Below are positions 8,955-64,000 of a stretch of DNA of 64,000 nt, in pieces. The position numbers were made by a program, and so were the translations under genes. The stretch comes from Planctomycetota bacterium (GTDB lineage Bacteria > Planctomycetota > UBA1135 > UBA2386). Every line of letters begins with the position of its first letter. Position 1 is the stretch's first letter. The notes below the pieces were generated by a model that was not told the origin of the DNA, did not search any database, and saw only the letters and a program-made list of their open reading frames with translations. The stretch is taken from assembly GCA_965223545.1 (NCBI GenBank), contig OZ245006.1:2656001-2720000 (forward strand), given 5' to 3'.

Positions 8955-11651
8955 TCAGGGGGTGACGTGCGCCATCGCGTTGGTCGCCGCCAGCCCGGCC
9001 GGCGCACCGGCATCGAGAATCCACGCCTGGGCGTAGAAGGTCGCGCCGGTGGCGACGGCGACCGGCACGGGCAACCGCGCCGACGCCGCGCCCGCGGCGT
9101 CGGTGGCGAACGGGACGCCGGCATCCGGACTCGGCACCAACGTCCCGCCGAGGAACGGCAGATTGAGCTGCTGCACCCCGAGCACGAACGCCGCGGGACT
9201 CGCCGGCGCAGCACTGGTGACCGCCAGCGTTACCGTCGACCCGATCTGCACCGCGCCGTGCGCCTCGAGCACCGGCTCGCCGCCAGCCCCCGCCAAGCCG
9301 AAGCCCAGGTCGCGCCAGCTGCCTTGCCGCCACGCGTCGACGCGGAACGCGGCCACGGGAGGGCCGGCGTGGAAGCGGGCGGCGAGGAACAGGTTGCTGC
9401 CCTCACTGCCGACGAGTGCCGGGCCGATCTCGTGCTCCGCGCCCGCGGTGACGACGTAGCCATCGGGATCGAGAAGCGTCCCCGCCGCGCTGACGCGCGC
9501 GGCGTAGATGTCGGTCCGCCAGTCGAAGAACGCGGCTTGGTTGCGCTCGTCTTGCCACGCCACGACGAACTCCCGGTCGTTCCAGGTCGCGGTCGGCGCG
9601 TATTGGTTGGCGGTCGCGCCGCTCAGGCTCACCGACCGCAGCCGCACGCCGCTGGCGTCGTACAACGCCGCGCCGATATCGGTCGGTAGACTCGCATTGT
9701 CGACGTAGGCGACCAGGATCCGATCCTGCGACGCCGCGACGGTCGCCGATGCGCTGCCCCCGGCGGTCGGGCTGCCCGACACCAGCTGCGGCGGCGACGC
9801 GCTGCCGTTGTTGCGGACGATCGCCATCTGCACGGTCGACCGGGGGTTGTCGTGCGAGGCGTGCCGCTGCCAGGCCACAACCCAGTCGTTGCCCATGGCG
9901 GTGGCGTCGACGAACTGGCTGTAGTTCGTACCGATCACCAAGGGGGATGGATCGAGCACCGCGCCCGTGTCATCGACGCGCGCGGCGATCGGGAACTGGA
10001 TCTGCGACGACGAGAACTGACTCGCGGCGACGAGAAACACCCCGCCCGCGGCGGCACACGACGGCAACAACCCGTTCATCACCAGTAACGGCTGTGGGTC
10101 GAGCACGGTGCCATCGGCGGCCATCCGCGCGGCGAGAACGCGATCGTCGGTGCGGCTCGAGCCATTGCGGTCGTGCCAAGCGATCAAGAAGACACTGCCG
10201 TTCCAAGCAACGCTCGGGCTCCCGTAGGTCGCGTTGTTGGCGATCTCCACCGGCTCGGCGTCGAGGCTGCGCCCAAGCCGGTCCAGCCGGCGTGCCATGA
10301 TGCGATTGCCGGCCGCGCTCTCGCTGGTGAAGACCGCGAGAAAGCCCGCTCCACCCGCGGCGATCTCCGGTGCCGCTTGGCGCGGCGCACCGGTCGACAG
10401 CTCCATCGCGGCACCGCTGGCGAGCGCCGAAGACACCGTCATGCCGAAGATGTCCCCGGTGTGCACTGGCACCGTGGTCGGATCGTCCCATACCAAGAGG
10501 ACCGAGCCGGACGCACCACCCGCACCGACCGCCGGGTTGACCGCCGACGCGGTGGCGGGCAACGGCACGCCCTCGGGGTCGAGCACGACCCCCGCGGGTG
10601 AAATGCGGGCCACGCGAAGGCCAGCGTTGCTGCCGAACAAGTCCGCGCGACGAAACCCCGTGACCCAGGTGCTGCCATTGAACGCGACATCGACGTGCTC
10701 CAGTCGCTCGGAGCCCACTCCGGTGGCGACGCGGATCTGGGCGCCGACGACTCGAGTCGGCGAAACGCGCAGCACCGAGATCTCCTCCGGCCCGATCGAT
10801 GGGTCGTACGAGCGCGCGACGAGGAACTCGTTGCCATCGCTCGCTACCCGCGGCCGAAACCCTCGCGAGATGAAGAAGATGCCACCCACCGCGCCACCGG
10901 CGGAGTCGATCAGCAGGCCGCGCACGTCCGTCTGCGACCACACCAACAGATAGCGGCCACCGGCAAACGCCAGGTCGTAGTTGAACTGCAGCCCCGACTG
11001 GTCCGGCAGCGGCGTGCCGCCTGGATTGAGCACCTGCCCACCCGCGCCGATGACGAACGAAAGCGGCGTGTCCTCACCGCCCGACGTGCCCGCCGACACC
11101 ACCAAGAACCCGTTGCCGTCGCTGCCGAGAGCGAACTCCGCGTCGATGGAGAACGGATAGCGGTAGACCGAGATCGGCGTCGGATCGAGCACGACACCGC
11201 TCGACGAGACCCGCACCGCCATGATCTCGGCGCGGTAGAAGAACTGGTTGGGCGTGCGCTGCTGCCACACGACCAGCCAGTCGGTGCCGTTCCACGCGAC
11301 CTTCGGCTCGTCCTTTTCGCCGAACAGATCGGTGATCGGAAACGGAACCGCATCCAACGGACCGGACTCGGCGACGCGCATCGCGTACAGCCCGCGCGCC
11401 GGCTCCGCGTTGAGGAGAGACGAGAAGCGCTCCCGGTGATCGGGCCAGACGACCAGCCACGAGTCCTGCCCGCGCGCCACGGCCGGCTCGTGTTGCTCAC
11501 CGCCGGCCGGGCCGACGGCGGCATCCCCCGGCCACGCCGGCAACTCCGACACCGGGGCGGGCGCCTGGGCCGTGGCAACGATGCCAAGCCAAGCGATCGC
11601 CAGCAGCGCAATCGAGAAGGGGAGACAGAACGCAACGGACCGGGAGTTCAT
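8955..11651 (-). CDS. Large secreted repeat (beta-propeller-like) protein with shared C-terminal domain
   Basis: Signal peptide ending VATA|Q; recurrent P.VA.NG...LV.W and RV...G.VLDP.P motifs; CTD ending FYAQAWILD...ATNAMAHVTP. Confidence 0.8.
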   Translation of the reverse strand: MNSRSVAFCLPFSIALLAIAWLGIVATAQAPAPVSELPAWPGDAAVGPAGGEQHEPAVARGQDSWLVVWPDHRERFSSLLNAEPARGLYAMRVAESGPLDAVPFPITDLFGEKDEPKVAWNGTDWLVVWQQRTPNQFFYRAEIMAVRVSSSGVVLDPTPISVYRYPFSIDAEFALGSDGNGFLVVSAGTSGGEDTPLSFVIGAGGQVLNPGGTPLPDQSGLQFNYDLAFAGGRYLLVWSQTDVRGLLIDSAGGAVGGIFFISRGFRPRVASDGNEFLVARSYDPSIGPEEISVLRVSPTRVVGAQIRVATGVGSERLEHVDVAFNGSTWVTGFRRADLFGSNAGLRVARISPAGVVLDPEGVPLPATASAVNPAVGAGGASGSVLLVWDDPTTVPVHTGDIFGMTVSSALASGAAMELSTGAPRQAAPEIAAGGAGFLAVFTSESAAGNRIMARRLDRLGRSLDAEPVEIANNATYGSPSVAWNGSVFLIAWHDRNGSSRTDDRVLAARMAADGTVLDPQPLLVMNGLLPSCAAAGGVFLVAASQFSSSQIQFPIAARVDDTGAVLDPSPLVIGTNYSQFVDATAMGNDWVVAWQRHASHDNPRSTVQMAIVRNNGSASPPQLVSGSPTAGGSASATVAASQDRILVAYVDNASLPTDIGAALYDASGVRLRSVSLSGATANQYAPTATWNDREFVVAWQDERNQAAFFDWRTDIYAARVSAAGTLLDPDGYVVTAGAEHEIGPALVGSEGSNLFLAARFHAGPPVAAFRVDAWRQGSWRDLGFGLAGAGGEPVLEAHGAVQIGSTVTLAVTSAAPASPAAFVLGVQQLNLPFLGGTLVPSPDAGVPFATDAAGAASARLPVPVAVATGATFYAQAWILDAGAPAGLAATNAMAHVTP

Positions 11652-11776
11652 GGGCGGTTCCACTGGAGACAAGAGTAGGCCACGAGCGCGGAGGGCAACT
11701 GTCGTGCCGCGACCGGCGTTGCGACGGCCTGTCCGGAATCGCGACGCAGTCGAGCCGAGGGCGACCCGATGCCCTC

Positions 11777-12535
11777 TCAGAACGCCGCGAGCAGGTCCAA
11801 GGCGCGGCCCAGGCCCGGACCCGAGCGGGCTCCGTGCCAGCAGAAGTCCTTGCCGCTGACCAGCGATACCGGACACCCGGCGCCGAACAGTTGGTCGCGC
11901 ACCGCGGCGTCGCGGTGCTCGACGCCGAACTCGTAGGGCTCGTCGGGCAGCAGCACCAACTCCGCACCGAGCTGACGCAACGCGCTCGCGTCGAACGACG
12001 GGTAGCGATCGTCGTGCTCGGCGGCGACGTTGAGTGCGCCGGCGCGGGTCAACACATCGTGGATGTAGGTGTCGCGGTTGACGCTCATCCACGGCTTGGG
12101 CCAGATCACATAGAAGACGCGCACGGTGCCGCGCGTCAGCCGCTCGACTTCACCGCGCGTGATCTGTGCATCCAGCTCGAGCAGCATCGCGCGCGACTCT
12201 TCGTCGGCGTCGAGGTGCTGGCCGAGATCTCGAATCACGGTGCCAGCCTCCGGCACGGTGCGCGGCATCGCCTCGTACACCGGGAAGCGCTGGCGCAGCC
12301 AAGCGACGTCGTCCGCGCGGTTCTCCTCGCTGTTGACCAAGACGAGATCGGGATCGAACGCGGCCAGCGCTTCGAGGTCGGGGTTCTTGGTGCCACCGAT
12401 CCGTGGCACGCCGCCGAGGTCGGCAGCGGGCTCGACGCAGTAGCGGGTGCAGGCGACCAGGCGTTTGCCGGCACCGAGCGCACACACGGTCTCGGTCCAC
12501 GACGGCACCAGCGACACCACCCGCTCCGCAGTCAC
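11777..12535 (-). CDS. Helical-backbone metal receptor (BtuF/cobalamin-binding-like), no signal peptide
   Basis: RVVSLVPSWTETV, CTRYC, IGGTKNP, PDLVL.N.EEN, LPDEPY.F, WHG.R; GTG start overlaps the upstream stop. Confidence 0.85.
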   Translation of the reverse strand: MTAERVVSLVPSWTETVCALGAGKRLVACTRYCVEPAADLGGVPRIGGTKNPDLEALAAFDPDLVLVNSEENRADDVAWLRQRFPVYEAMPRTVPEAGTVIRDLGQHLDADEESRAMLLELDAQITRGEVERLTRGTVRVFYVIWPKPWMSVNRDTYIHDVLTRAGALNVAAEHDDRYPSFDASALRQLGAELVLLPDEPYEFGVEHRDAAVRDQLFGAGCPVSLVSGKDFCWHGARSGPGLGRALDLLAAF

Positions 12536-13938
12536 TCGCCCGCTCCGCTCAGCATCGTCTCCACCGACACCGGCTTGATCGGCACCTGCACGACCGGACA
12601 TGGAGGCGGTCCGTCGGTCAGCCGCAGCCGATCGACGAGCAAGTCGTGCAACAAGGGCTGGCAGATCCGCCCCTGACACGGGCCCATGCCGGCGCGGCAG
12701 CCCATCTTCACCGCCCGCAGATCGCTGCCGTAGAGCTCCGCCGCCTCGCGCACCGCGGCCAGCGACACGTCTTCACAGCGGCACACGATGGTGTCGTCGG
12801 TGGCCAGCTCGGCCAAGCCCGGCGGCAGCGCGAAGGCGGCCAGCATGGCGTCCGAGGCGCGGCGCTCGCGGACGCGCCGCGCGCCCGCCCGCCGCAGCGC
12901 GTCGTTCCGCGCGGCATCGGGCAACGCCATTTCCGCGGCGATCGCGAGCCCCGCCAGCGCGCCCTCGGCGATCGCCACATCGGCACCGCCGATGCCGGCG
13001 ATCTCACCGGCGACGTAGACCCCGGAGACGCTGGTCTTCATCTGGGGATCGTGCACCGGCAGCCACCCACCGCGCACCGCGTGATAGCGCATCTCGCACC
13101 CCAACAGCCGGGCGACTTCGATCTGCGGCAACAAGCCGTAGCCGACGCAGATCAAGTCGACGTCCACTTCGATTGCGGTCTCGCGGCGCGGCCGCCCCTG
13201 ACCATCGACCTTGCCGATGACCGCCGCCGAGACGGCCTCGTCGCCACGCGCCTCGAACAACGCCCAGCCCGGCCGGTAGTCGACACGGCGGCCGAGCATC
13301 AGCCGCGCGTAGTGCCAGGCCTCGCGGCGACGCATCGAGCTGCCGAGCACGCCACCCACAGCGCGCAGGGCGCGGCGCCGCGTGCAGACCTCGAGCGCAG
13401 CCACCACCTCGACCTCGGCGGCGAGCAGCGCCGCGACCGTCGGCAGCAAGAGTGGTCCAGTCCCCGCCACCAGCGCGCGCCGGCCGGGCTCGATCGCGAA
13501 GCCGCGGACCAAGACCTGCGCCGCCCCGGCGGTGATCACTCCGGGCAACGTCCAACCGGGAAAGGCCAGCGAACGGTCGTAGGCGCCGGTCGCCAGCACG
13601 GCGTACTCCCACTCGAGCCGCTGCCGCGCGCCGTCGACCTCGAGTTCGAACCAACCGGGACCGGCATCCCAGACCAGCGCTCCGGTCAGCACTTCGATCT
13701 CGAGCTCGCCGACTTCGGTGAGCAGCGCGTGCCCGCGCTCGTGGTTGGGCGATGCGAGCTCCACGCACGCACCGACCTCGTAGCCACGGGGCGGCTGGCG
13801 GAAGATCTGTCCGCCGGCCCGCGCGGCCTCGTCGATGACCACGACGCGACCGCCGACCTTGGCCAGCTCGGTCGCCGCCGCCATCCCCGCGGGCCCAGCG
13901 CCGAGTACGGCGACCTGAGTGCGGCGCGCTTCGGTCAT
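12532..13938 (-). CDS. FAD/NAD(P)-dependent oxidoreductase with C-terminal BFD-like [2Fe-2S] domain (HcnB/OoxA-like)
   Basis: VLGAGPAG, GGQIFRQ, LATGAYDR..FPGWTLPGV, CRCEDV, GMGPCQGRIC. Confidence 0.9.
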   Translation of the reverse strand: MTEARRTQVAVLGAGPAGMAAATELAKVGGRVVVIDEAARAGGQIFRQPPRGYEVGACVELASPNHERGHALLTEVGELEIEVLTGALVWDAGPGWFELEVDGARQRLEWEYAVLATGAYDRSLAFPGWTLPGVITAGAAQVLVRGFAIEPGRRALVAGTGPLLLPTVAALLAAEVEVVAALEVCTRRRALRAVGGVLGSSMRRREAWHYARLMLGRRVDYRPGWALFEARGDEAVSAAVIGKVDGQGRPRRETAIEVDVDLICVGYGLLPQIEVARLLGCEMRYHAVRGGWLPVHDPQMKTSVSGVYVAGEIAGIGGADVAIAEGALAGLAIAAEMALPDAARNDALRRAGARRVRERRASDAMLAAFALPPGLAELATDDTIVCRCEDVSLAAVREAAELYGSDLRAVKMGCRAGMGPCQGRICQPLLHDLLVDRLRLTDGPPPCPVVQVPIKPVSVETMLSGAGE

Positions 13939-14213
13939 GCGGGCTCCACCGTCGCGCCGTCACGCACGGCCGCCATGCAGGCGCGCACCTCGCGACCTTC
14001 GATCCGCACCAAGCACTCGTAGCAGACGCCCATGTTGCAGTACACGCCGCGCGGCGCGCCGATCACGGTCGAGCGGCGGGTGGCGCGAACGCCGGCCGCC
14101 CACAGCGCGGCGGCGATCGACTCGCCCTCGTACGCCACCACCTCGCGGCCCGCGAAGGTGAAGCGCACCGGCGCGCCAGGCCGCTTGGCTCGGCTCCACC
14201 GGCCGGTGGTCAT
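13935..14213 (-). CDS. [2Fe-2S]-binding subunit (HcnA-like, Fer2_4)
   Basis: GESIAAAL, RGVYCNMGVCYECLV, RAC; ATGA overlaps on both sides. Confidence 0.9.
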   Translation of the reverse strand: MTTGRWSRAKRPGAPVRFTFAGREVVAYEGESIAAALWAAGVRATRRSTVIGAPRGVYCNMGVCYECLVRIEGREVRACMAAVRDGATVEPA

Positions 14214-15403
14214 GCGGGCTCCCCGCTGCCGGCCGACAGCCGCGTCGGATGGAACGCGTGCATCAGCGGGTCGACCTGACCACCGATGGCGTCGGCGATC
14301 AAGGCTCCCGTGATCGGCGCGAGCGAGATCCCCAGCCCCTCGTGACCGGTGGCCAACCACAGACCCGGCACCTCACCGACCGGTCCGATCAACGGCAACT
14401 TGTCGAGGGTGTACGGCCGCAGCCCCGCCCAGGTGCGGGTGACGCGGGCACCGCGCAAGCCGGGCACGAAGCGCGCGGCGGTGCGCAACGAGTCGCGCAG
14501 CAGCGCGCGCTGGACCGCGCGGTCGGGGGCGAACTGTCGCGTCGAACCGATCAGGCAGGTGCCGTTGGATTGGGGTTGGACGTTGAGCGCGTGGGCACCG
14601 GGGTCGGCGGCGGAATCTCTCGGGTCGACGGCCGCCGTCGTCGTCGTGCGCAGGTAGCCCACCTCGAGCAGCTGGTGGCGCACCGGCGTCTCCCGCGGCA
14701 TGGTGATCGCCAGGTCGCCGCGCCGGGCGTAGACCGGCAACTCGGGCACACCGGCCGACGCGGCGATCTCGGCCGACCAGACGCCAGCGGCCAACACGAC
14801 GTGAGGCGCGGCGATGGCGCCGCGCGGCGTGATCACACCGGTGACCGCGCCGTCGTTGGATCGGAGAACACGCGTCACCGGCGCGTTCCGCCACACCACA
14901 GCGCCGGCCTCCATCGCCGCCCGCAACAGCGCGCCCGCCGCCAGCATCGGCATCAGCACACCGTCCTCCGCAAACCAGTACGCGCCCGGCAAGTCCGGGG
15001 CAACGCCCGGCTCCCGCGCGCGCAGCGCCGCGGCATCGAGGCGCTCGCCGGCACAGCCCTCCGCCGCGAACACGCGCTCGAGCTCGTCCAGGAGCTCGAG
15101 ATCGGCGGCGCACTCTGCCAACCACAGCGCACCGGTGGCGTTGAGCTCGAAGGTGCCGAGCTCGGCGCGCAGCGCGTGCCACAACCGCACGCTGGCCAGG
15201 GTCAGCGCGCGCATCGGATCGGGACTCGGCACGACCATGAGATGCCCCATGCAGCAGCCACTCGTGCCGGTGGCGATGCCGTCGCGTTCGACCAGGACCG
15301 TGGCCAAGCCGGCGCGGGTCGCGTAGTACGCGACCGCGCAGCCGACGATGCCGCCGCCGACTACGACGACGTCCGCGGTCTGTGTGCTTGTCGTGCCGCC
15401 CAT
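14210..15403 (-). CDS. FAD-dependent amino-acid oxidoreductase (DAO family, HcnC/OoxB-like)
   Basis: VVVVGGGIVG, WAGLRPYT.D.LPLIG, ATGHEGLGISLAP.TG. Confidence 0.9.
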   Translation of the reverse strand: MGGTTSTQTADVVVVGGGIVGCAVAYYATRAGLATVLVERDGIATGTSGCCMGHLMVVPSPDPMRALTLASVRLWHALRAELGTFELNATGALWLAECAADLELLDELERVFAAEGCAGERLDAAALRAREPGVAPDLPGAYWFAEDGVLMPMLAAGALLRAAMEAGAVVWRNAPVTRVLRSNDGAVTGVITPRGAIAAPHVVLAAGVWSAEIAASAGVPELPVYARRGDLAITMPRETPVRHQLLEVGYLRTTTTAAVDPRDSAADPGAHALNVQPQSNGTCLIGSTRQFAPDRAVQRALLRDSLRTAARFVPGLRGARVTRTWAGLRPYTLDKLPLIGPVGEVPGLWLATGHEGLGISLAPITGALIADAIGGQVDPLMHAFHPTRLSAGSGEPA

Positions 15404-15551
15404 GGCCGACAGCAGGAATAGCCGATGAGATTCGCGCGTGCCTCCCCGACGACGCGAAATGCATCGCCGCCCCCGATGCTCCGCGGCGGTGATCGGGGCA
15501 ATCTGCCGGCGCCCATTCCACCTAGCGCGCAGGTGCTCGATGATCCGAGTC

Positions 15552-16199
15552 ATGATCACTCTGACGACCTTCTTGCTTCCCCTGCTGCCGGCGGTCGTGG
15601 CGCTCGGCACACCGGCGGTCTTGCATCCGCATCACCCCAAGGCGATCCGCATCGGCGGAGCGGCGGGGTCGGTGAACATCACGTACTTCACGGTTCCGTA
15701 CAACGAGACGCATCTCGCCAATCTGCAGCCGGGGTTTTCCTGGCATCTCGGGTTCTCCACTTGGAAGACCGACGTGCAGCTCCAGTGTGGTGAGGTGACG
15801 ATCCCGGCGGGCGAGTACAAGCTCGACGCGGTCCACGCCGAGGACGGCTGGCACTTCGAGCTGAGCAACCTCGAGCTGGCGATGGCGAAGATGCGGGCGC
15901 GGTTCACCCGCGGCGAACGCGCCGAGGCAGCGCAGCAGCGGCTGGCCGAGCTGGTCACCGAGCTGGCGGACAGCGGCGGGACCGAGACCTACCGGCTACA
16001 CGCCGACAGCTTCAAAGCGGACGACGAGGAGCACCTCGCGATGTACGCGATCCACCGCGGCTACAACACCACGCAGCGCATGAGCGAGACCCCGGCGAGC
16101 GGCGCCGAGTTCTCGCTGCGGATCAGCTTCGGCGACCTGCACCGCGAGGTGTCGGTGACCGAGGTGTTCGTGCCTCCGGCCGACGAGGGCGGCCGCTGA
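15552..16199 (+). CDS. Secreted protein, DUF2911-like
   Basis: N-terminal signal peptide; ITY..P, W.LG, IPAGEYKL, W pattern. Confidence 0.55.
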   Translation: MITLTTFLLPLLPAVVALGTPAVLHPHHPKAIRIGGAAGSVNITYFTVPYNETHLANLQPGFSWHLGFSTWKTDVQLQCGEVTIPAGEYKLDAVHAEDGWHFELSNLELAMAKMRARFTRGERAEAAQQRLAELVTELADSGGTETYRLHADSFKADDEEHLAMYAIHRGYNTTQRMSETPASGAEFSLRISFGDLHREVSVTEVFVPPADEGGR

Positions 16200-16217
16200 G
16201 ACGGCCGGCGATCGCCC

Positions 16218-18299
16218 TCAACGAGCCGCCACCGCGCGGTCGCCGCTCTCCAGGTCGATGACCAGCAGCGCGCGGCGCACCGTGTCGACGGTGTAGAGCA
16301 CGTTGCGCACCGGGTCGATCGAGATGCCGTGCGCCGACAGGATCGGTGGCCCAGCGCCCCGCAGGCCGCCGGCCTCGACTCCACTGACCAGACGGCGGCC
16401 GCCCAGCGCGTCGACTGCCAAGACCCGCGTCTGCTCGACCACGATCAGCTCTTGGCCCGGCCAACGGTCCATGGCGACCGGTGCCGAGAACGACGGGCCA
16501 GCGCCCGTGACTTCGTTGGTCACGCCGCTCGGGTCGACGCGCACGAGTCGCACGTCGCCGGGCGCCACCAGTTCGAACGTCATCACCCGGCCGGACTCGT
16601 CGAACGCGATCGGCCCGAACCTGCGGTCCGGCAGGGAAATCGACGCGCCGGCCGGGGGCGACACGACGAGCTCGTCGCCACCACCGGCGGCGGTCTCCGC
16701 CACCGCGGCGACGACGCCGAAGGCCTCGCGCGCGATCGCCAGGGCGACGACCGGTTGCTGCATGGTGAACAGCGCCTCCTCCCTGCCGGTCGCCAGGTCG
16801 AGTCTGAGCACGTCTTGGCCGCGGCGCGCCAGCGCGCTGGCAGGAGGTCCCGCTACCGACGGCAGCGTCGCCAACGCCACCGGTGGAACGCTGGCGCGAT
16901 CGACGACCCATTCATCGTAGCCGCCAACGACTCCACCGAAGACCTGAGTGCAATACGCCGTCGTCAGCGGCATCACGTGCGGGTCACCGTCCAAGAGAGT
17001 CCACGCCAGCAACTCCTCGCCGCTCCCCAGCGGCAAGCCGGTCGCCGTCTCGACGCCGATCCCGCCGACGCCTTCGTCCCAGGAACAGCCGCCGCCGAGC
17101 ACTGGTCCGGAGTCCTGACTCGGGGTCATCGCGGTCAGATCCAGAGCGGCGACGGCGCCCGCCACGCCGGGGACGCCGATCGACGCGCGCGCGGCGGCCT
17201 GGTCCACGACCATTCCCGGCAGTGCACTGCCGTCGCCCGGATCGAGGGCGGCGACCGCGGCGCGATCTCCGCTGGAGATGGCGACCGCAATCCACTCGCC
17301 GGTACCTCGATCTGCCGCCAGCAGCAGATCCGGGGCGACCACCCCGAGCGCGCCGAGGGCACCGAAGGCCGTGCCAGTGCCGCGCCCGGCGCCGGAGAGC
17401 TCGGCCCGCGCACCACTGGTGGGATCCAGCGCCAGCACTGCGTCGGCCAGGGCGACGTAGGCGGCGCCCGCAGCATCGAACGCCAGGTCGACCGCGCCAG
17501 TGAGCGCGGGGCCAGTGCCGACCGAGGCGCTGGCGACCAGCGCGCGGGCTCCGCTGACCACGTCGACGACGTAGATCTCGCCGGCGGGGGCATTCAACAC
17601 GAGCAGGAAGTCGCCGCTCGGCGCCAGCGCCACGCGAGAGTGATGCGCGATCGTCGGGCCCGCATGCGCCGACCCGCTGAAGACCCCGCGGTCGCCGGTG
17701 TCGAGGTCGACCAACAGCAGCGCGTCACCGTCCCCGACGTAGGCGAAGCGCGGGTTCGCGCTGAGCGCAATCCCGGCGGGGGCGTTCCAAAGTGGCCCCA
17801 GCCCCAACGCCTCCCGCGAAACAACGCGGCGGTTGCCGGCCATATCGATCGCCACCACCCCGGGCGGCTCGACCGATGCCGCCAGCATCTCGCCCCCGGC
17901 GCCGGCAGCGACGGAGGCCAACACGCCGGTCCAGGTCACCGGCTCGAGCGTCAGCGGCAGCGCGACGTCGAGCCACCGGCCCGCGACTTCGACTTCGGCG
18001 TCGATCAGGCGAGGCCCGCTCCAGGAGAGGGGCAGCGAGGCACGCCAAGTGGCGTAGTCATCGTCGGTTTGCGCAACCTGCCCCTCGATGCGCAGCCCTG
18101 TGATGCGATTGCCATCGACGGTCACGGCTGCCCCGCGCACCTCGACGGCATCGCCGTCGACCAACGCAACTGGCCCGGGAAAGGACACTTGGAACAACGG
18201 TGTCTCCGGCCCGCTGTCGCTGTGACAGCCGATCACCGCGAGCGAAGACAGCAGTGCCGCGCCGGCGAGACTGCTCCGGGACCCCTGGGGCTCGACCAT
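16218..18299 (-). CDS. Lipoprotein with Ig-like N-domain and beta-propeller repeats
   Basis: Lipobox LAVIG|C; repeated D..SG.R..VS....G.GP motifs. Confidence 0.7.
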   Translation of the reverse strand: MVEPQGSRSSLAGAALLSSLAVIGCHSDSGPETPLFQVSFPGPVALVDGDAVEVRGAAVTVDGNRITGLRIEGQVAQTDDDYATWRASLPLSWSGPRLIDAEVEVAGRWLDVALPLTLEPVTWTGVLASVAAGAGGEMLAASVEPPGVVAIDMAGNRRVVSREALGLGPLWNAPAGIALSANPRFAYVGDGDALLLVDLDTGDRGVFSGSAHAGPTIAHHSRVALAPSGDFLLVLNAPAGEIYVVDVVSGARALVASASVGTGPALTGAVDLAFDAAGAAYVALADAVLALDPTSGARAELSGAGRGTGTAFGALGALGVVAPDLLLAADRGTGEWIAVAISSGDRAAVAALDPGDGSALPGMVVDQAAARASIGVPGVAGAVAALDLTAMTPSQDSGPVLGGGCSWDEGVGGIGVETATGLPLGSGEELLAWTLLDGDPHVMPLTTAYCTQVFGGVVGGYDEWVVDRASVPPVALATLPSVAGPPASALARRGQDVLRLDLATGREEALFTMQQPVVALAIAREAFGVVAAVAETAAGGGDELVVSPPAGASISLPDRRFGPIAFDESGRVMTFELVAPGDVRLVRVDPSGVTNEVTGAGPSFSAPVAMDRWPGQELIVVEQTRVLAVDALGGRRLVSGVEAGGLRGAGPPILSAHGISIDPVRNVLYTVDTVRRALLVIDLESGDRAVAAR

Positions 18300-18364
18300 G
18301 ACACCCCGTAGCCACGCGATCCTGCGTGGCAACAGGTCGGCGGGCGGGCGGCGCGAAGCGAGAA

Positions 18365-18387
18365 AATCGAGCCGGACTCCGTACTTA
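18365..18387 (-). repeat. Degenerate GTAC-REP-like copy directly after the UbiB-family stop codon
   Basis: Minus strand TAAGTACGGAGTCCGGCTCGATT, similar to the copies at 24.9 kb and 40.3 kb. Confidence 0.6.
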
Positions 18388-20055: not shown

Positions 20056-20179
20056 CGTCGTGCCGGCTTCGAGATTGCAGTCCGCATGATCCGCATCGGG
20101 TTCGCGCACGCCCGGTGATGCCGAAAGCGCTGGACGGTCAGGACGCGATTCCTATCGTACCGGGCGCGGCTCTCGGCCT

Positions 20180-21295: not shown

Positions 21296-21299
21296 GGCG

Positions 21300-21683
21300 T
21301 CAGGCGCGCACCGGCGCCTCGTAGGTCGTCCAGGCGACCGGGCTCTCGCGCAGGATCACCTTGAGGTCGCCATCGAAGACCGCGGCCACGGCGGCACTGA
21401 CTTGTTGGTGCAGGTACTGGCACAACCACTCGGTGGTCGTGTTGACACCGTTCAGCTCCGGCACTTCGTCCAAGTTCTTGAAGTTCAGCCGCGCGAGGAT
21501 GTTCTGCAGCGCCTCCTGCGCGGACGCGAAGTCGACGATCAAGCCGTGCTCGTCGAGGCGCGGCGTGGTGTAGACCACTTCCACCTCGTAGGTGATCACG
21601 TGCATCAGCTGTGCAGGACCGAAGATGTCACCCTTCAGCGAGTGCGCACACTTGAGATAGTCGCGGATCGTCAGCGAGAACAT
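21300..21683 (-). CDS. 6-pyruvoyl-tetrahydropterin synthase / QueD-like (T-fold) protein
   Basis: MFSLTIRD...AHSL.G..FGPAQLMH..TY.V; VDF; NLDE; NTTTE; LRES..AW..Y. This is the 3' end of the long antisense ORF 21300..24575. Confidence 0.85.
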   Translation of the reverse strand: MFSLTIRDYLKCAHSLKGDIFGPAQLMHVITYEVEVVYTTPRLDEHGLIVDFASAQEALQNILARLNFKNLDEVPELNGVNTTTEWLCQYLHQQVSAAVAAVFDGDLKVILRESPVAWTTYEAPVRA

Positions 21684-21800
21684 CACCCGACTGTAAAGGG
21701 GCGGAGCCCGATTCCGGTTTTGCCAAAAGGGTGGGACGTGCCAGGCGGGGCGGCAAAGACTCGGGCAGCCTCGCGCCTCAGCACTTGCGCAATACCGAAC

Positions 21801-24800
21801 ATGCTTCGACTCCACCGTCTCGTCTGGTTCTCGCTCGCCGCGGTCTGCTCCTGCGTCCCAGCTCTGTGGGCGCAAGGCCCGAGGCTCCTGCTCGACGTCA
21901 ACTCGACAAAGCCCCCGGAAGGGAGCTCGATGCCCCGTGACGCAGTGGTGCTGGGCAGCTGGATCTACTACACGGCCACCACCCCCACCACCGGCCGGGA
22001 GCTGTTCCGCACCGACGGCGCGGCGATCGAGCTGGTCGTCGACCTCGCCCCGGGCAACAGCAGCGCCAACATCGCCAACCTGACCGCGACGGGAACGGCG
22101 CTGTTCTTCACCCACACGGACTCGAGGGGCAACGAGCTCTGGACCTCCGACGGCACGGCCGCGGGCACGCGGATCGTCAAGGACATCCGTGAGGGCGGCT
22201 CCAGCTCGTTCCCACAACTGCTGACCGCTTCGGCTGGCAAGGTCTACTTCGCGGCCACCGACAGCGCCGGGCAGGAGCCGTGGGTCAGCGACGGGACCGA
22301 CGCGGGAACCGTGCGCCTCGGCGACCTGAACCCCGGTGGGGCCAACGCGTCGCCGCGAAACTTCACCGCCTTTCGCGGTGGCGTGGCGTTCTCCGCGTGG
22401 TCGACGCTGGGGCACGAGCCCTACTACTCGGACGGCACGCCAGCCGGCACCGTTCGCCTGGCCGACATCTACCCGTTCGGCTCGAGCTCTTCGCCGACGA
22501 GTTTCGCCGTCCTCGGCAACAACGTGTTCTTCGTCGCGACGAGCCCGACAGCGGGCACGGAGATCTGGGTTTCCGATGGGACACCGGCCCGCACGGTACT
22601 CTTCATCGACCTGCGCCCGGGGGTTTCGTCGAGCCAGCCGGAAGATCTGACCGTGTCGGGATCCTCGCTGTACTTCGGCGCGCACGACGGCATCAACGGC
22701 CTGGAGCTGTGGGTGTCCGACGGCACGCCGGCCGGCACGCGCCTCGCCGACGACATTCAACCCGGGCCGGGCTCGGGCTACCGCGGCGAGATGGCCTCCT
22801 TGCAGGACGGCCGCGTCCTGCTCGCGGGACTCGACGGAGTCTCCGGCGTCGAGCCGTGGGTGTCCGACGGCACGCCGGCCGGCACGTTCTTGCTCGCCGA
22901 TACCAATCCTGGGATCGGCAGCGCGCTGATGGCGAGCCTGACATCGGCCTCGGGCCGTGTGTTCTTCACCAACCAGCTGGGTCCGACCGGGCGCGAGCCG
23001 TGGGTGTCCGACGGCACCGTCGGCGGCACGGTGCTCTTGCGCGACATCATCCCCGGCACTTTCAGCTCGTCCCCGGTGTTCCAAGTGGTCGACCCCAGCA
23101 CCAACAAGCTGATCTTCTCGGCGCCCGATCTGATCGCCGGCGATGAGCTGTGGGAGAGCGATGGCACGCCGGCGGGAACCGTCCTGCTCGCCAACACGCT
23201 CGCACCGCCTGCCGGCGCCACCAACTCCTCCAACGCGAAGAGCTATGTCCACGCCTTTGGCACGACGTATTTCTCCGCCAACGGCGGCCCCGGCTTCCAC
23301 GAGCTGTGGAAGACCGACGGCACCGCGGCTGGCACCAAGCTGGTCCGGTCGGTCACCCTCGCCGCCACCAGCACCGCATCCTTGGCCGTGGCTGGCGACA
23401 AGGTCTACTTCCGCGCCACCGACGTGGCGACCGGCGACGAGCTGTGGGTCAGCGACGGCACCAGCGGCGGCACGCAGATGCTGCGCGACATTCGGCCGGG
23501 CTTCTCCAGCTCGAACGCGAGCTTCCTGACGGCGGTCGGCGACCGCCTGTTCTTCACCGCGAACGACGGGGCGACCGGACAGGAACTCTGGATCACCAAC
23601 GGCACACCGGCCGGCACCACCCAGGTCAAGGACATCGAGCAGGGCTTCTCGAGCTCGGCACCGAGCGACTTGACCCGCCTGCACGGTGTGTTGCTGTTCG
23701 CCGCCGACGGCGGCTTCGAGACCGGTCGGGAGCTGTGGATCAGCGACGGCACGCGGCCGGGCACGCAGCTCGTCTTCGACGTGTTCCCCGGCTCGGTCGG
23801 CTCCAGCCCGGCAGAGCTCACGCGCGCCGACGGCCTGGTGTTCTTCCGCGCCAACGACGGCACTAGCGGAGTCGAGCTGTGGGTCACCGACGGCACCGCC
23901 GGGGGCACCCGCCGCGTCGCCGACATCTTCCCCGGCCTCGGCAGCAGCAACCCCACCGGCCTCACCGCGGTCGGCGGCACCGTGTTCTTCTCCGCCACCG
24001 ACGGCAACTCGGGGACCGAGCTGTGGAAGTCGGACGGCACCGCCGGCGGGACCGTGCGCGTCGCCGACCTCGAACCGGGCATCTTCGGCGCCTCGCCGAC
24101 CCAGCTCACCCGCCTCGGCGACGGCATCGTGTTCTCCGCGCTCACCGCGGCGAGCGGCCGCGAGCCCTGGATCTCGGACGGCACCGCCGCTGGCACGCGC
24201 CTCATCGCCGACCTCGTCACCGGCACCAACGGCTCGCAGCCGGCGGACTTCACCCCGGCCGGCTCGCGCTTCGTCTTCTTCACCGCGGCGTCCGGCGGCA
24301 GCGATCGCGAGCTGTGGCGCAGCGACGGCACCGCCGCCGGCACCGTGCGGATCACCTCGGGCTTGCTGGAGGGCACCTCTCCCTCCGACCTGACCCTGGC
24401 CAGCGGACAGCTCTTGTTCAGCGCCGCCGACAAGCTGCGCGGCCGCGAACCGTTCGTCCTCGACCTCGACGCGGCAAACCAAGCCGTCGGCTTCGCCTGC
24501 GGAGCCGGCCGCCGCCCCGAGCTGGAGTGCACCGACCCCGTGCTCGGCGCCGTTTCGCGCATCCTCGGCCGACAAGCTCCACCGGCAACGCCCGGCTTCC
24601 TTCTGCTCGGCCTGCCCAGCACACCGCTCACCCTGGCGGCCCAGCCCGGCAACACCTGCGCGCTGTTCGTCGCAGCGCCGGTCCTGCTGGCGACGCTGAC
24701 CGTGCCCGCCGCCTCGACCACCTGGCAGCTCCCGCTACCGATCCCCAACGCCACAGCCCTCGCCGGCTTCGACGTCTCGATCCAGGCCATCTTCGCGCCC

Positions 24801-24860
24801 ACCGCCAGCCCCGCCGGCGGCGACACCACCAACGCCATCGTCCTCACCCTCGGGCAGTAA
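21801..24860 (+). CDS. Secreted ELWxxDGT repeat protein with shared C-terminal domain
   Basis: Signal peptide ...ALWA|Q; about 18 E[LP]WxxDGT repeats; CTD ending SIQAIF...TTNAIVLTLGQ. Confidence 0.92.
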   Translation: MLRLHRLVWFSLAAVCSCVPALWAQGPRLLLDVNSTKPPEGSSMPRDAVVLGSWIYYTATTPTTGRELFRTDGAAIELVVDLAPGNSSANIANLTATGTALFFTHTDSRGNELWTSDGTAAGTRIVKDIREGGSSSFPQLLTASAGKVYFAATDSAGQEPWVSDGTDAGTVRLGDLNPGGANASPRNFTAFRGGVAFSAWSTLGHEPYYSDGTPAGTVRLADIYPFGSSSSPTSFAVLGNNVFFVATSPTAGTEIWVSDGTPARTVLFIDLRPGVSSSQPEDLTVSGSSLYFGAHDGINGLELWVSDGTPAGTRLADDIQPGPGSGYRGEMASLQDGRVLLAGLDGVSGVEPWVSDGTPAGTFLLADTNPGIGSALMASLTSASGRVFFTNQLGPTGREPWVSDGTVGGTVLLRDIIPGTFSSSPVFQVVDPSTNKLIFSAPDLIAGDELWESDGTPAGTVLLANTLAPPAGATNSSNAKSYVHAFGTTYFSANGGPGFHELWKTDGTAAGTKLVRSVTLAATSTASLAVAGDKVYFRATDVATGDELWVSDGTSGGTQMLRDIRPGFSSSNASFLTAVGDRLFFTANDGATGQELWITNGTPAGTTQVKDIEQGFSSSAPSDLTRLHGVLLFAADGGFETGRELWISDGTRPGTQLVFDVFPGSVGSSPAELTRADGLVFFRANDGTSGVELWVTDGTAGGTRRVADIFPGLGSSNPTGLTAVGGTVFFSATDGNSGTELWKSDGTAGGTVRVADLEPGIFGASPTQLTRLGDGIVFSALTAASGREPWISDGTAAGTRLIADLVTGTNGSQPADFTPAGSRFVFFTAASGGSDRELWRSDGTAAGTVRITSGLLEGTSPSDLTLASGQLLFSAADKLRGREPFVLDLDAANQAVGFACGAGRRPELECTDPVLGAVSRILGRQAPPATPGFLLLGLPSTPLTLAAQPGNTCALFVAAPVLLATLTVPAASTTWQLPLPIPNATALAGFDVSIQAIFAPTASPAGGDTTNAIVLTLGQ

Positions 24861-24993: not shown

Positions 24994-27012
24994 TCAGACT
25001 CCGAAGCGGCGGGGGGGCGAGACCGCGTCGATGCCGCTTGGGCCGAGGATGACGAAGGCGGCGTGGACCGTGTGGCCACGCCAAGCGGTCCCCGTGGGCA
25101 CGATGATCTCGGCCGTGATGACCCCCGAGGCGTCGACCACACCGCGCGCGCCGGTGACGCATGCCGGTAGCGCATCGGTCGCGGTCGCCTGCAAGAGTGC
25201 GTCGGCGTCGAGTGGTAGCTGCACGCCGCGCCATGTCGTCGGACCGCTGCCGTTCGACAACAGGAGCCGATAGCTGCGCCCGGTCCATTGCGGCGCATTC
25301 CACGACAGCCGCACCCGGACACCGTCGATCTCAACCCCCTCGGAGCGGGCGACGAGGTTCAGAGGCGGCCGCCTCTCGAGCTGCAAGTGGCCGAAGGCCC
25401 GCTGCACCCACTCCGCGTCCGGCGACTCGAACGGCATCCACAGTCCGTCCCCGACGCGCACCGCGTACTCGGCCCGCTCGAGAGCCTGCGCTTGTGTGCT
25501 CGCCGCCGGCCGTGGCTCGAAGTTGACACCGCGCTCCGCCAAGTAGCCGGGCGGCGGGCGCCGATCGTGCGCGATCTTGCGGCCCGCATTGGGCGTCGAG
25601 ACCGGTGTGTGTGCGATCACTGCATCGCACAACCCCAGTCGGTCGACCACCGTGAGGTCCGGCAAGTAGAACGGCATCACGCCCACGGCGTACGCCGCTG
25701 CCACCGCGTCGCTTGGCAATGATCCGCGCGGCATCCGCTCGTATGGCGACCAATCGCGCACGCGCGCACGGCCGAACACGGCGTGCTCGCGCACGGTCTG
25801 CCCCACCAAGTGAGGCAGGTTCGCCCGCCGTGCGCGGTTGGAGATCGAAGCGGCGCGCGAGACCCCGGGCAACCACCGCAGCCACGGGCTGCGCTCCGGA
25901 TCGTGCTCGACGAACAGGTACGACGTCTCCGCCCGCGACTGCAAGTCGCGCACGCGCCACACCGCAGTGTCCTGCAGCACGGCGACGTAGCCGACGAGCA
26001 CCACTCCCAAGCCGATCGCCGGCAGCGGACGCCCCCTGCTGATCGCGATCACTCCGTCCGCAGCCGCCACCGCCAACAAGGGCCAGTAGAAGTCGAAGAA
26101 CCGGTACTCGAAGTAGTCACCGCCGATCCACACGACGTACGCGGCATGCGCAGCGACGCTCGCCAGCCCCATTCGGTGCAAGACTCCGCGGCGCTCACCG
26201 CGGCGCGCGACCGCGCCGACCAGCGCGAGCGGCAGCTGCAGGTACAGCGCGGTCTCACAGATCGCGGCGAGCAAGAACGGCCCCCCCGCCTCCGGCCACG
26301 GCCGCACGTGCTTGGCGTAGTACGTGTTGGGCAACCACTCGCCGTAGTACAGCCAGCGAAACGCGAGCTGCGCGCCCGCCAGCGCCAACCACGGTCCCAT
26401 CACGACCAGCCAGCCGCGCATCGAGACCGTGCGCGGGCCCAACGCCCAGCGCACCCCCAGCGCGACGCCGCCGATCAGCGCGGCCTCCGGCCGGGTCAGC
26501 GTCGCCGCCCCCAACAAGCCGCCCACCGCCAACCGCGCCCGCCAACCGGAGGCGTCGCTCAGCAACCAGAGCGCGGCGAACACCAGCAGCGAGAACTGCC
26601 GGGTCTCGAGCCCACCCGTCGACCACGCCGCGAACGACGCGCTGACGCAGAGCACTCCCGTCGCGATCCACGGCGCCACTCGACCGCCGGCGCGCGCCAC
26701 TCGCCACACCAACACCAGAGTGAGCAGGGTGCAGCCGACCGACATCACCGGCGCCGCCAGCTCGGGCCGCATCCCCAGCCACGCCCACGCCGCCGCCAGC
26801 TGCAACACCCACAAGAGCTGGGTGTAGCCCTCGACGCGCTCGCCGGCGTTGAAGCACAGCCCCTCGCCCTCGATCAAATTGCGCGCGTAGCGAAAACAGA
26901 TGAACGCGTCGTCGCAGAGAAACCACGTCTCGACCACCAACAGCGCGAGCACCGCCGCCCATGGCGCGTAGGCCAAGAGCGCGGCGGCTGGCCGCCACCG
27001 ATCAGTGGTCAC
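24994..27012 (-). CDS. Polytopic GT-C-type glycosyltransferase (AftB-like) with C-terminal domain
   Basis: DDAFI.FRYARN...[40 protein letters not shown]. Confidence 0.8.
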
Positions 27013-31956: not shown

Positions 31957-32961
31957 ATGCACGCACGCCATTTCACCGCGGTCCTCGCCGCGCTGGTGCC
32001 CGCCGTTGCGGCGCAGCACATCTCCTACCCGCAAGAGACTCTCCAGTACCGCCTCGGCAACCTCCTGCCGTTGGGCTCCGGCGGAGGAGGCGCCGGCAGC
32101 CAGGTCGAGGAAGGCCGCTGGCACCAGCTGATCCCCGCCGACCACTTGCCGACCCGGCCCGGGCCGATCCGCGGCCTGTCGGTCGTCATCGGCGGCCTGT
32201 TCGGTGCCGAGCACGCGATCCCGTACGCCTCCTTGCGGATCAGTCTGGCACACACCAACCGGACGACGCTGAGCACCGCGTTCGCGCAGAACCTCAACAG
32301 CCCGGTCACGGTCGTCGATCGGACCGACACGGTCCTGACCTGGATCGAGCAACGCTGGAACCACCTGCCGTTCGACACCCCGTTCGACTACGACGGCAAG
32401 AGCGGCCTGCTGATCGAGTTCCGCAAGGAGGTCGACGCCCGCTTCCGCGGCTCTTCGTCGGCCGCGAACCAGCCGGGCAACCCCGGCAGGCCGGATCTGC
32501 CCGCCGCGGTCTACTCGTTCGGCCCCGCCGGCTCGGGCGCGGCCGGCGCAGCCAATGCCGCGGTGATCGGCGCTCCGCTGCAGCTTCGCCTGCACGTCGA
32601 GTCGCCGACCCTCGTGCTGCTGAGCGATCCGGTGCCGGCGTTGTTCGGCCACGTGTTCGCGTTGGCACAGAGCTTCGACGCCACGGTCACCGCCGCCGCC
32701 GGCAGCCGCTACTGCACCTGGGTGGGCGCCGGTTTCGGCCCGCGTTTCTCATGGCCGGGCGCCAGCGGCGAGGGCGTCGTCCAACCCCTCGCGGTCATCT
32801 CGGTCGGCGCGATCGGCGGCGAGGGCAGCGCGACGGCCAGCGTGCCGATCCCCGCCGATCCCAACCTCGTCGGCGGTCTCCTCGCCGTGCAGGCCGGCGT
32901 GCTCGGTACCAACGGACAGCTCTCGTTCACCAACGCGGCCGACTTCGTCATCAACAGCTGA
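31957..32961 (+). CDS. Secreted hypothetical protein with shared C-terminal domain
   Basis: Signal ...VPAVAA|Q; FDTPFDYDG..GLLIE motif; CTD VPIPADPNLVG...VQAGVL...FTNAADFVINS. Confidence 0.8.
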   Translation: MHARHFTAVLAALVPAVAAQHISYPQETLQYRLGNLLPLGSGGGGAGSQVEEGRWHQLIPADHLPTRPGPIRGLSVVIGGLFGAEHAIPYASLRISLAHTNRTTLSTAFAQNLNSPVTVVDRTDTVLTWIEQRWNHLPFDTPFDYDGKSGLLIEFRKEVDARFRGSSSAANQPGNPGRPDLPAAVYSFGPAGSGAAGAANAAVIGAPLQLRLHVESPTLVLLSDPVPALFGHVFALAQSFDATVTAAAGSRYCTWVGAGFGPRFSWPGASGEGVVQPLAVISVGAIGGEGSATASVPIPADPNLVGGLLAVQAGVLGTNGQLSFTNAADFVINS

Positions 32962-36971: not shown

Positions 36972-38627
36972 ATGCGGCCGCGCGCACCTGCGTTGAAACC
37001 CCTGGCGATCTTGACCCTCGGCACCGCGCTCACCGCGCAGGGCTACCCCCTGTGGACGAGCACGTCGCCCGCGTTGCCCGTCCATCCCAGCGCGGGCACC
37101 GGCGACATCGACGGCGATGGAGTCCGCGATCTGCTCCGCGGCCCGGTGCCATTGAGCGGCGGCCCGATCGAAGTCGTCTCCGGCCGCGACGGCATCGTGC
37201 TCCGGACCCTCGCGGCTCCCGCGGGGAGCGCCGCGTTCGGTTACGCGCTTGCCCCGTTTCCCGACGCCGACGGAGACGGGGTAGCGGACATTCTGGCCGG
37301 TGATCTTCGCGCGACCGTTCCCGGGACCGGGTTGGGCAGCGTGCTCGTCGTCTCCTCGGCGACGGGCATGGTGCTCGAGCGCGTCTCTGCACCGGCCGGC
37401 GCGCAGGAATTCGGCATCGTCGTCGCTGCCGTGAGCGACCTCGACGCGGACGGGACGGCCGACATCCTGGCCGCGGCGACGACTCCGTCACAGGTCGTCA
37501 TCGCCTCCGGGCGCACCGGCCTGCCGCTGCGCACGCTCGCCGGTACCGGCCCGTTCGATGGCTATGGCGCGAGCGTGCTCGACGCCGGAGACGTCGACGG
37601 CGACGGTGTCGCGGAGATCGCGATCGGAGTCACCGAGCCCGGCAACTCGCTCGACCCACCGTTCGTGCCGACCGGCACCGGCTACGTCGAGCTCCGCTCC
37701 GGCGCCACGGGAGGCCTGCTGTGGGTCAGCCGCGGTGCCGCGGTGCGCGACGCGTTCGGCAGCGCGCTCGCGCGCGTGCACGACGTCGACGGCGATGGGC
37801 TGCCCGACTTGCTCGCCGGCGCCCCGCAACGCTACCCCTGCTCCGACATGACCTGCTACTCCGGCGCCGGCTATGCCTCGGTTCTGTCGGCGCGGACGGG
37901 CGCGGTACTGCTCACGGTGAACGGCACCGGCACCGCCGCGCAGTTCGGCGCATCGGTCACCGCGATGCCCGACGTGGATGGCGACGATGTCGATGATTTC
38001 GCGGTCGGCGCACCGGGCGACGACAACTATTTCTACGTTCCGTTTCCCGGTGTAGTGCACGTGTTCTCCGGCGCAGACGGAACCGGAATCGCGAATGCCG
38101 GCACGGCGCCCGATCTGTTCGCCGGCAGGGACGTGATCGCGCTCGGCGATGCCGACGGCGACGGCGTGCCGGATGTCGCCAGCGGTCCGCGGCTCGATGC
38201 GCGTTCGCTGGTGGGCATCGCGAACGGCGATCTGCGCGTGGGCACCGCGTGTGCGGGCGCGGGTGGACGCGCGCCCACGCTCGCGACCTACGGTGGGACC
38301 ATCGATGCGAGCGGCAACGCGCGCTTTGGCTTCGCGGTCTCGCAGGGCCGCGCCAATGCCCCCACGGCGCTGCTGCTCGGCACCGCGACCAACCCCGCCG
38401 GAGTGTCGTTCGGCGGCTGCAGGGTGCACGCCGGCGGCACCATCGTCGCCGCCGTGCCCGCGGCGACCCTGAGCAGCAACGGCCATCGGTTCCTGCCCAC
38501 GCCGGTTCCGGTGCTGCCGCCGGCGACGGCGGGATCGACGCTCACGTGGCAGGGCTTGGTGCTGGATGCGGCCAGCCCGAACGGACTCTTCAGCGTGACC
38601 GAGGCGGTGGTGACGACCGTGCGCTGA
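36972..38627 (+). CDS. Secreted FG-GAP/VCBS (integrin-alpha-like) repeat protein with shared C-terminal domain
   Basis: GGAGA RBS; signal ...ALTA|Q; seven DxDGDGxxD-type motifs; CTD ending WQGLVLD...SVTEAVVTTVR. Confidence 0.9.
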   Translation: MRPRAPALKPLAILTLGTALTAQGYPLWTSTSPALPVHPSAGTGDIDGDGVRDLLRGPVPLSGGPIEVVSGRDGIVLRTLAAPAGSAAFGYALAPFPDADGDGVADILAGDLRATVPGTGLGSVLVVSSATGMVLERVSAPAGAQEFGIVVAAVSDLDADGTADILAAATTPSQVVIASGRTGLPLRTLAGTGPFDGYGASVLDAGDVDGDGVAEIAIGVTEPGNSLDPPFVPTGTGYVELRSGATGGLLWVSRGAAVRDAFGSALARVHDVDGDGLPDLLAGAPQRYPCSDMTCYSGAGYASVLSARTGAVLLTVNGTGTAAQFGASVTAMPDVDGDDVDDFAVGAPGDDNYFYVPFPGVVHVFSGADGTGIANAGTAPDLFAGRDVIALGDADGDGVPDVASGPRLDARSLVGIANGDLRVGTACAGAGGRAPTLATYGGTIDASGNARFGFAVSQGRANAPTALLLGTATNPAGVSFGGCRVHAGGTIVAAVPAATLSSNGHRFLPTPVPVLPPATAGSTLTWQGLVLDAASPNGLFSVTEAVVTTVR

Positions 38628-40328: not shown

Positions 40329-40360
40329 GTGATGAATCGGAGCCTGGCTCCGTACTTTCA
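40329..40360 (-). repeat. Single GTAC-REP-like copy abutting the FadL-like stop codon
   Basis: GTGATGAATCGGAGCCTGGCTCCGTACTTTCA, 29/32 identical to 24953-24984. Confidence 0.88.
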
Positions 40361-61377: not shown

Positions 61378-61444
61378 GAGGGGTGGACCGTCGCGCACCG
61401 AACGCGGTGCAGACGCGGCCGGCGCCAGCTGCCAAGATGGGCGC

Positions 61445-63003: not shown

Positions 63004-63019
63004 GCGTGCCAGCCGCGCG

Positions 63020-64000
63020 TCACTGCGCGAGGGTCACGCGCACCGGGTTGCTGGCAAACACCGCCATCGACCCCGACAGCACGACGTAGGCGTGGTCGAT
63101 GTTCAAGCCGACGAGCGCCGGGATGGCGAGGGGCGGCAACGAGAACGCCGCTGAGGCCAGGCCGATCGCGTCGAGGTTGCCGAACGACGCCGTCAACGGC
63201 GGCGTGTTCGGCGCGCTGACCGTTTGGGAAGTGTAGCCGTCGGGGTTGAGCGGCACCGTCACCGCGCCGACGGTGAAGCCGGGAGACGTGCCACTGATCG
63301 AGCCGGCGACGACGTACACCGCGCCGCCATGCGTCGTCCCCGCCGACAGCCTCAGCCCCTGCGTGCCGCCGGTGGCGAGCGAGATGCTGTCGGTGTCACT
63401 CGAGAACGGCACGTCGTCCGCGACGAGCGTGCCGTTGAGCGTGAGCGATCCGCTGCTGCCGGTGGCCGGGTCGGCGAACGAGAACGTGGTCGCGACCGGC
63501 ACCGACAGCCGGATGCCACCGGGCGTCGGCACGAACGTCCCGTTGACCGGCTGCGGCGCGCTCTGCTGGCCGCCGAGCGAGACGGTCTGGACCGAGCCCA
63601 GGGCGTTGATGTTGGCCGTTCCCGCCAACATGGTGGCGACCATCGACGTGCTGAAGGCGCCACCCGCACCGATCGCGAAGGACGCCGGCGCGAGGGTGGC
63701 GGGATCGACCGAGGCGAAGGCCACGCGCGCGCCGCTCACCGTGATCGTCGCCAGCGGCGGCAGGAACGGAAACGGGTTGGGCACGCTGGCCGACAGCGTC
63801 GGCACCACGACCTCCGAGCCGCCGTCGACGAGCTGACCCGTGGTCAGCGCCCCCGCCGCCGCGGTCAGCACCGCGTCGGCTTCGCCCGAGACGTTGAAGG
63901 TCGAGGGGTTGCCGACCAGCGGTCCGGACACGCCTTGATAGGTGACCGATCCCGAGAACGAGAACGAGGACTGCGCCTGGTCGACGACGAACAGGTGCTG
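63020..64000 (-). CDS. Probable exported protein with shared C-terminal domain (5' end outside window)
   Basis: Open to the window edge (QHLFVVDQAQSSFSFSG...); CTD SISLATGGTQGLRLSAG...PLNPDGY...GNLDAIG...HAYVVL...ASNPVRVTLAQ. Confidence 0.8.
   Translation of the reverse strand, partial: QHLFVVDQAQSSFSFSGSVTYQGVSGPLVGNPSTFNVSGEADAVLTAAAGALTTGQLVDGGSEVVVPTLSASVPNPFPFLPPLATITVSGARVAFASVDPATLAPASFAIGAGGAFSTSMVATMLAGTANINALGSVQTVSLGGQQSAPQPVNGTFVPTPGGIRLSVPVATTFSFADPATGSSGSLTLNGTLVADDVPFSSDTDSISLATGGTQGLRLSAGTTHGGAVYVVAGSISGTSPGFTVGAVTVPLNPDGYTSQTVSAPNTPPLTASFGNLDAIGLASAAFSLPPLAIPALVGLNIDHAYVVLSGSMAVFASNPVRVTLAQ

Follow-up and report, generated by a model that had tools for sequence, protein, structure and literature searches.

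SLH envelope anchors are built of a triplicated helical motif. The C-terminal domain (CTD) of the type IX secretion system (T9SS) is an immunoglobulin-like (Ig-like) antiparallel beta-sandwich, as described in PMC11285876, which also reports non-cleaved tails on PorU and PorZ. For the dockerins of Phycisphaerae a non-cellulosomal "planctosome" has been proposed (PMC6461901). Presented here is an analysis of a domain of ~120–130 residues found at the C-termini of six proteins encoded in a 64,000-nucleotide stretch, hereafter the window, of a planctomycete genome (G000; the window is contig C1:2656001-2720000). The genome comprises 8.1 Mb in two contigs with 70% GC, and its placement in Planctomycetota is indicated by the nearest ESM Atlas clusters and by named homologs. 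The domain represents a real, very large and uncatalogued family, carried by about 408 of the 5,731 genes called in this genome, and the tests applied place it outside the T9SS, dockerin, SLH and sortase-tail families. The six carriers in the window are as follows.

8955..11651, minus strand: repeat protein of 898 residues with a signal peptide; type 1 domain at ~8955-9335
21801..24860, plus strand: ELWxxDGT repeat protein (TIGR04534, 17 stretches) with a signal peptide; type 1 domain at ~24471-24860
24994..27012, minus strand: polytopic GT-C-type glycosyltransferase (weak NF041481 match, far under the cut-off); type 2 domain at ~24994-25360
31957..32961, plus strand: signal-peptide protein of 334 residues; divergent domain at ~32600-32961 (E 3.7e-8; E 2e-15 with the genome-built profile)
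36972..38627, plus strand: FG-GAP repeat protein with a signal peptide; type 1 domain at ~38229-38627
63020..64000, minus strand: signal-peptide protein of 355 residues whose start lies past the window edge at ~64087; type 2 domain at ~63020-63409

The first-pass annotation of the window had quoted these six C-termini, all of which are indeed present in the sequence where it placed them, and had aligned them by eye as one domain. Pairwise BLAST is significant only for the 8955–24860 and 8955–38627 pairs, but a single family is borne out by profiles built from the genome, which match all six tails (E 2e-15 to 5e-40) and give no match in the reversed protein set. The four signal peptides it had noticed, in the genes starting at 11651, 21801, 31957 and 36972, are confirmed and are joined by a fifth in the gene ending at 63020, giving five of the six proteins by eye; likewise, no membrane helix lies within the domain. 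Its statement that the domain always lies at the very C-terminus is true of the six window proteins and fails genome-wide, where 369 of the 408 carriers (90%) end within 5 residues of the domain, 24 continue for another 16–45 residues, and 15 have it deeper inside. The expectation of many more carriers elsewhere was correct, and six in 64 kb is no special cluster, the mean being 3.2 and 19 of 128 bins holding at least six.

Two subfamilies make up the family: type 1 consists of the tails at 8955, 24860 and 38627 and, more distantly, that at 32961, and type 2 of those at 24994 and 63020. Their relationship extends across the last 49 columns (hhalign probability 89.8, E 1.8e-6). Genes were called with a home-made caller and signal peptides and membrane helices with home-made heuristics, the signal-peptide rule being lenient; by these definitions 338 of the 408 carriers, which constitute about 7% of the genes, score as signal-peptide proteins. 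The number 408 is probably a floor, to judge from further divergent tails visible by eye. The domains have a mean pairwise identity of 28% and a variable insertion, and no two-copy protein occurs among 346 carriers of this genome or 150 representatives. Among relatives, 30 of 31 have the domain, many with more than 100 matches, and in an even sample of the phylum it occurs in 55 of 251 genomes, 51 of which hold 6–17 of the 17 scored candidates and 4 of which hold one. A small genome of another order, G187, carries it on 42 of 1,802 called genes plus one more. The type 1 profile retrieves 31,395 protein clusters at 50% identity; in 147 of the 150 best matches no more than 5 residues follow the domain. 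A gammaproteobacterial match was rejected, being without a match to the profiles.

Pfam and NCBIfam contain no match for the domain in the six window proteins or in 43 aligned tails, and the protein at 8955..11651 has no match in either library over any part. This agrees with the earlier remark that the tails are unlike T9SS CTDs, PEP-CTERM or LPXTG signals, and they are predicted to be folded domains ending in a beta-strand. A sequence search of the PDB returned no domain match below E 0.25, a cluster look-up gave no useful names, and the ESM Atlas neighbors are unnamed planctomycete clusters, the named ones (CHRD, on the cargo side) scoring 0.78–0.82. AlphaFold models of the 63020 tail (type 2; predicted local distance difference test, pLDDT, 97.2) and of the 24860 tail (type 1; pLDDT 92.5) are beta-sandwiches with a helical insertion and a long hairpin, respectively, and thus both subfamilies are predicted to adopt an Ig-like sandwich. 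Fold searches retrieve generic Ig-like domains only, with best Z values of 8.7 and 8.6. The PorU chain aligns with the type 1 model (Z 7.7, root mean square deviation (rmsd) 3.0, 97 residues aligned) at rank 9 among tied generic matches and is unlisted for the type 2 model. A GM2-activator match (Foldseek E 7e-4, template modeling score (TM) 0.34, rmsd 9.5) was rejected as too poor for any claim of lipid binding. No description of the domain was found in the literature within reach of the search, although subscription journals and supplements outside that reach may hold one; the accessible part of 10.1101/817700 mentions no such domain among the terms searched.

The cargo of the domain is biased toward surface-type propellers. 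It is present on 29 of 29 ELWxxDG, 28 of 28 kelch-like and 55 of 74 FG-GAP proteins but on only 6 of 97 CxxCH proteins. Lipoboxes are rare in carriers (3/408 versus 270/5,323 for other proteins), also within one cargo type, the FG-GAP proteins (1 of 55 carriers versus 7 of 19 non-carriers). The domain thus appears to mark cargo of the surface type that is without a lipid anchor. When starts are fixed, the first polar residue to follow the hydrophobic stretch is Gln for 178 of 214 carriers versus 384 of 1,026 non-carriers; it is the commonest residue at this position in non-carriers as well, and in G187. This resembles the Q-rule of Bacteroidota (PMC5837995). Glutaminyl cyclase PF05096 was not found in G000, in a search whose control was detected, and one of four M28 proteins of G187 that were tested resembles aminopeptidases.

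Other modules can occupy this position. Among 539 homologs of the body of the 8955..11651 protein, the best 120 were listed, and 119 remain after the protein itself is dropped. Their tails are this domain in 24 cases, PKD in 39, FlgD_ig in 20, SLH in 7 (all from Chloroflexota), dockerin in 4, and unlabelled in 25, and the domain occurs in none of the 70 homologs labelled PKD, FlgD_ig, SLH or dockerin. Two of the FlgD_ig tails score above the cut-off for T9SS type A, three unlabelled tails match the GC-type dockerin below its cut-off, and TIGR04183 is detected by the same library in P0160 and P0256. In other organisms the same body ends in another domain without a name, Tyr/Gly-rich and with a terminal Cys (P0201, P0202, P0207, P0209 and P0235), for which scans of two tails gave no NCBIfam match.

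A comparable exchange is seen between whole genomes. G021, the one genome of the same order without the domain (no match with two models, 91% complete), has 39 dockerin matches versus none in G000, G023, G187 and G039, and each of the four G021 FG-GAP proteins examined has dockerin-like repeats at its end. Of the 21 genomes in the phylum sample with at least five dockerin matches, none has the domain, and no more than two such matches occur in any of the 51 multi-copy genomes. Most of this contrast lies between distant groups and related genomes are not independent; G021 is the informative case. The dockerin matches of G021 (loci L214, L219, L221 and L222) are accompanied by no cohesin match. 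A search for TIGR04534 in five domain-negative genomes gave no match, and its control was silent too.

The exchange with known anchor tails on one body, together with the few lipoboxes, the single copy per protein and the bias toward surface propellers, leads to the reading that the domain is kept after maturation and attaches its protein non-covalently to a single shared partner in the envelope or at the surface, in the way of dockerins and SLH; we judge the chances of this to be even. Carriers would pass through Sec export followed by cleavage by signal peptidase I, and the domain would fold in the periplasm, in keeping with the Cys pair found in many type 1 members. Extracellular cargo would then leave by a general pathway, for which the conserved type II secretion system (T2SS) is the most plausible candidate, and docking would involve the P-x-L-x-G...Q turn together with the final two strands, which are conserved. 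The partner may be an envelope glycan or an abundant protein, the domain-only proteins described below being one possibility. The original suggestion of a secretion or surface-attachment tag thus survives as an uncatalogued, genome-wide and lineage-restricted tag on exported proteins, with its attachment half supported by the exchange of the domain for T9SS-type, dockerin or SLH modules and its outer-membrane secretion half weakened by the domain forms and machinery searches considered next.

Several observations weigh against retained docking. Cohesin PF00963 has no match in five genomes although the control was detected, and no scaffoldin-like or tandem-repeat scaffold occurs among 327 candidates of G187 and 708 of G000; since even G021 gave no cohesin match, the dockerins used for comparison are likewise without a demonstrated partner. 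G021 is moreover a single fragmented genome (240 contigs, 4% contamination). The lenient signal-peptide rule also passes 2,210 of 5,323 non-carriers (42%), the domain is at the extreme C-terminus in 90% of carriers, as secretion signals are, and true T9SS tails hold the same slot in other phyla.

The last two points lead to the foremost alternative, in which the domain serves as a secretion signal that is folded, in the manner of the T9SS CTD, is read by a translocon (the T2SS or an unrecognized channel) and is possibly left uncleaved. This would account for the terminal position in 369 of 408 carriers, for the predicted Ig-like fold, as in T9SS tails, and for TIGR04183 tails in the same slot; the uncleaved tails of PorU and PorZ (PMC11285876) provide a precedent, and all 25 domain-positive genomes checked have a full-length GspD ortholog. 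We nevertheless regard it as less likely, given the forms in which the domain occurs and the machinery searches described below. Nine proteins consist of a signal peptide and the domain only (by eye, 9 of 11 listed), and in eight the domain follows immediately on the signal peptide (by eye, 8 of 15). In the 24 proteins having a 16–45-residue beta-rich extension, the extension probably completes the cargo fold. In a split form, as read from the sequence, a first FGxGC motif stands at the mature N-terminus and the cargo is inserted before the remainder of the domain (2 in G000 and 10 of 150 representatives), and P0109 appears by eye to combine domain and similar cargo with the nesting reversed. 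The GT-C enzyme of the window, the sole carrier of 408 with at least three predicted membrane helices, has retained its fusion to the domain in the seven closest of 120 listed homologs, and a polytopic inner-membrane protein cannot be secreted. Domain-only, N-terminal, nested and GT-C-fused forms are more easily reconciled with an attachment module that is retained than with a T9SS-like signal that is cleaved off. In two other homologs of the enzyme, P0285 and P0287, the final domain is another unnamed beta-domain; it has a Cys pair and may be the tag of a different lineage.

Searches for machinery point the same way. SprA, the C25 peptidase and TIGR04183 were not found in G000, a weak result because the controls were silent and the genome is 91% complete; PorV reaches only 24 bits against a cut-off of 90 in a search whose control was detected. 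A signal-peptide protein at 40358-41683 of the window (minus strand), which is not the sub-threshold PorV match, has by eye what we take to be a FadL/PorV-like N-terminal motif. G000 encodes six secretins and three Omp85 proteins, and it has in common with G187 its T2SS, type IV pilus and double-secretin/ExbBD loci, as well as a TonB-receptor locus that includes a carrier. The large barrels common to both are only BamA, one TonB-dependent receptor and porins, with no dedicated barrel. Of 109 exported proteins common to the two genomes, 76 were scanned against Pfam and none suggests a dedicated translocon; in addition, 152 shared membrane or signal-bearing proteins were listed. GspD is also found in G021 and other negative genomes (48 of 48 in a mixed panel), and its presence in positives and negatives alike makes it a possible route rather than a specific partner. 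The search with PF03934 was uninformative for machinery.

A locus encoding two secretins, TPR proteins, ExbB and ExbD (G000 C1:7078860-7090901, syntenic in G187) was rejected as specific machinery, its secretin family being present in 242 of 251 genomes; it may instead be a phylum-wide, possibly proton-driven channel. Its two TPR-bearing secretins surround TPR proteins, ExbB and two ExbD (G000 C1:7076990-7090901, L191; G187 L066:8528-19999), and at C1:7076990-7078063 of G000 there is a MamK-like actin (MreB_Mbl and Salactin matches) that appears reminiscent of the saltatorellin of 10.1101/817700. Elsewhere in G000, two short tandem secretins lie next to an OmpH-like gene (C1:1171737-1174692). 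In two orders, a carrier with a 67% identical body heads a locus of lipoprotein, TonB-dependent receptor, ExbB, ExbD, TonB and TPR genes (G000 C1:4672357-4684333; G187 L122:7461-18913).

Self-assembly of the domain into a coat, an S-layer-like lattice or fibre displaying cargo as part of itself, would be consistent with the domain-only exported proteins, the single copy per protein, the very high gene number and the finding of no separate receptor, but 28% mean identity and a variable insertion are hard to reconcile with one lattice and no S-layer match stands out in the fold searches, making this reading improbable. Binding of an outside ligand (biofilm polysaccharide, a particle or prey surface, or lipid) in the manner of a carbohydrate-binding module with no sorting role is more doubtful still, for although the Ig-like fold is common to enzyme accessory domains, PKD also occupies the slot on the 8955 body, and the fused GT-C has other homologs ending in unrelated beta-domains, the domain has few aromatic residues (W 1.3%, Y 1.3%), never occurs in tandem and is all-or-none across genomes.

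Taken further, retained docking yields a broader and more tentative picture, for which the prospects are somewhat short of even: in one branch of Planctomycetota, hundreds of different proteins would be held on the surface by a hitherto undescribed, universal Ig-like docking module, bound to one envelope receptor or to itself, exported by an ordinary T2SS, and exchanged wholesale for dockerins in a sister lineage. If so, one unnamed domain would account for the destination of 2–7% of the proteome in many abundant, mostly uncultured planctomycetes, would help to annotate over 31,000 clusters of hypothetical proteins, and would constitute a new surface-display route in Gram-negative bacteria. 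G021, in which the domain is swapped for dockerins, would provide a natural comparison both for a receptor search and for what the cohesin-less planctomycete dockerins bind. The preference for Gln behind the signal peptide in bacteria other than Bacteroidota is a separate, minor lead.

Among the closest known systems, the dockerins (PF00404; GC-type NF041540) likewise occur as one module at the end of numerous unrelated exported proteins, in the same slot on the same bodies, with expansions that are mutually exclusive with this domain across genomes. They differ in sequence (no match in G000, control detected) and in fold, since the domain is a predicted all-beta sandwich as opposed to paired Ca-binding loop-helix repeats, and no cohesin was found. 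The T9SS type A CTD (TIGR04183, PF18962; FlgD_ig-like PF13860) similarly combines a Sec signal with a C-terminal Ig-like sandwich, predicted in the present case, on diverse cargo, but its profiles match none of the 6 window proteins or 43 tails, the domain described here is 120–130 residues long with a long hairpin or helix insertion, it is also seen at the N-terminus, by itself, in nested form and fused to an inner-membrane enzyme, and T9SS parts were not found in the searches described above. SLH (PF00395) is also a non-covalent envelope anchor ending the same body, in Chloroflexota, whereas the domain is predicted to be a single beta-sandwich and neither the window proteins nor the aligned tails have an SLH match. 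The PEP-CTERM/exosortase, GlyGly-CTERM/rhombosortase and LPXTG/sortase systems are comparable as lineage-restricted, many-to-one tagging of exported proteins; NCBIfam gave no match to such tails here, and in place of a short motif with a terminal membrane helix and basic tail the carriers have what is predicted to be a folded domain.

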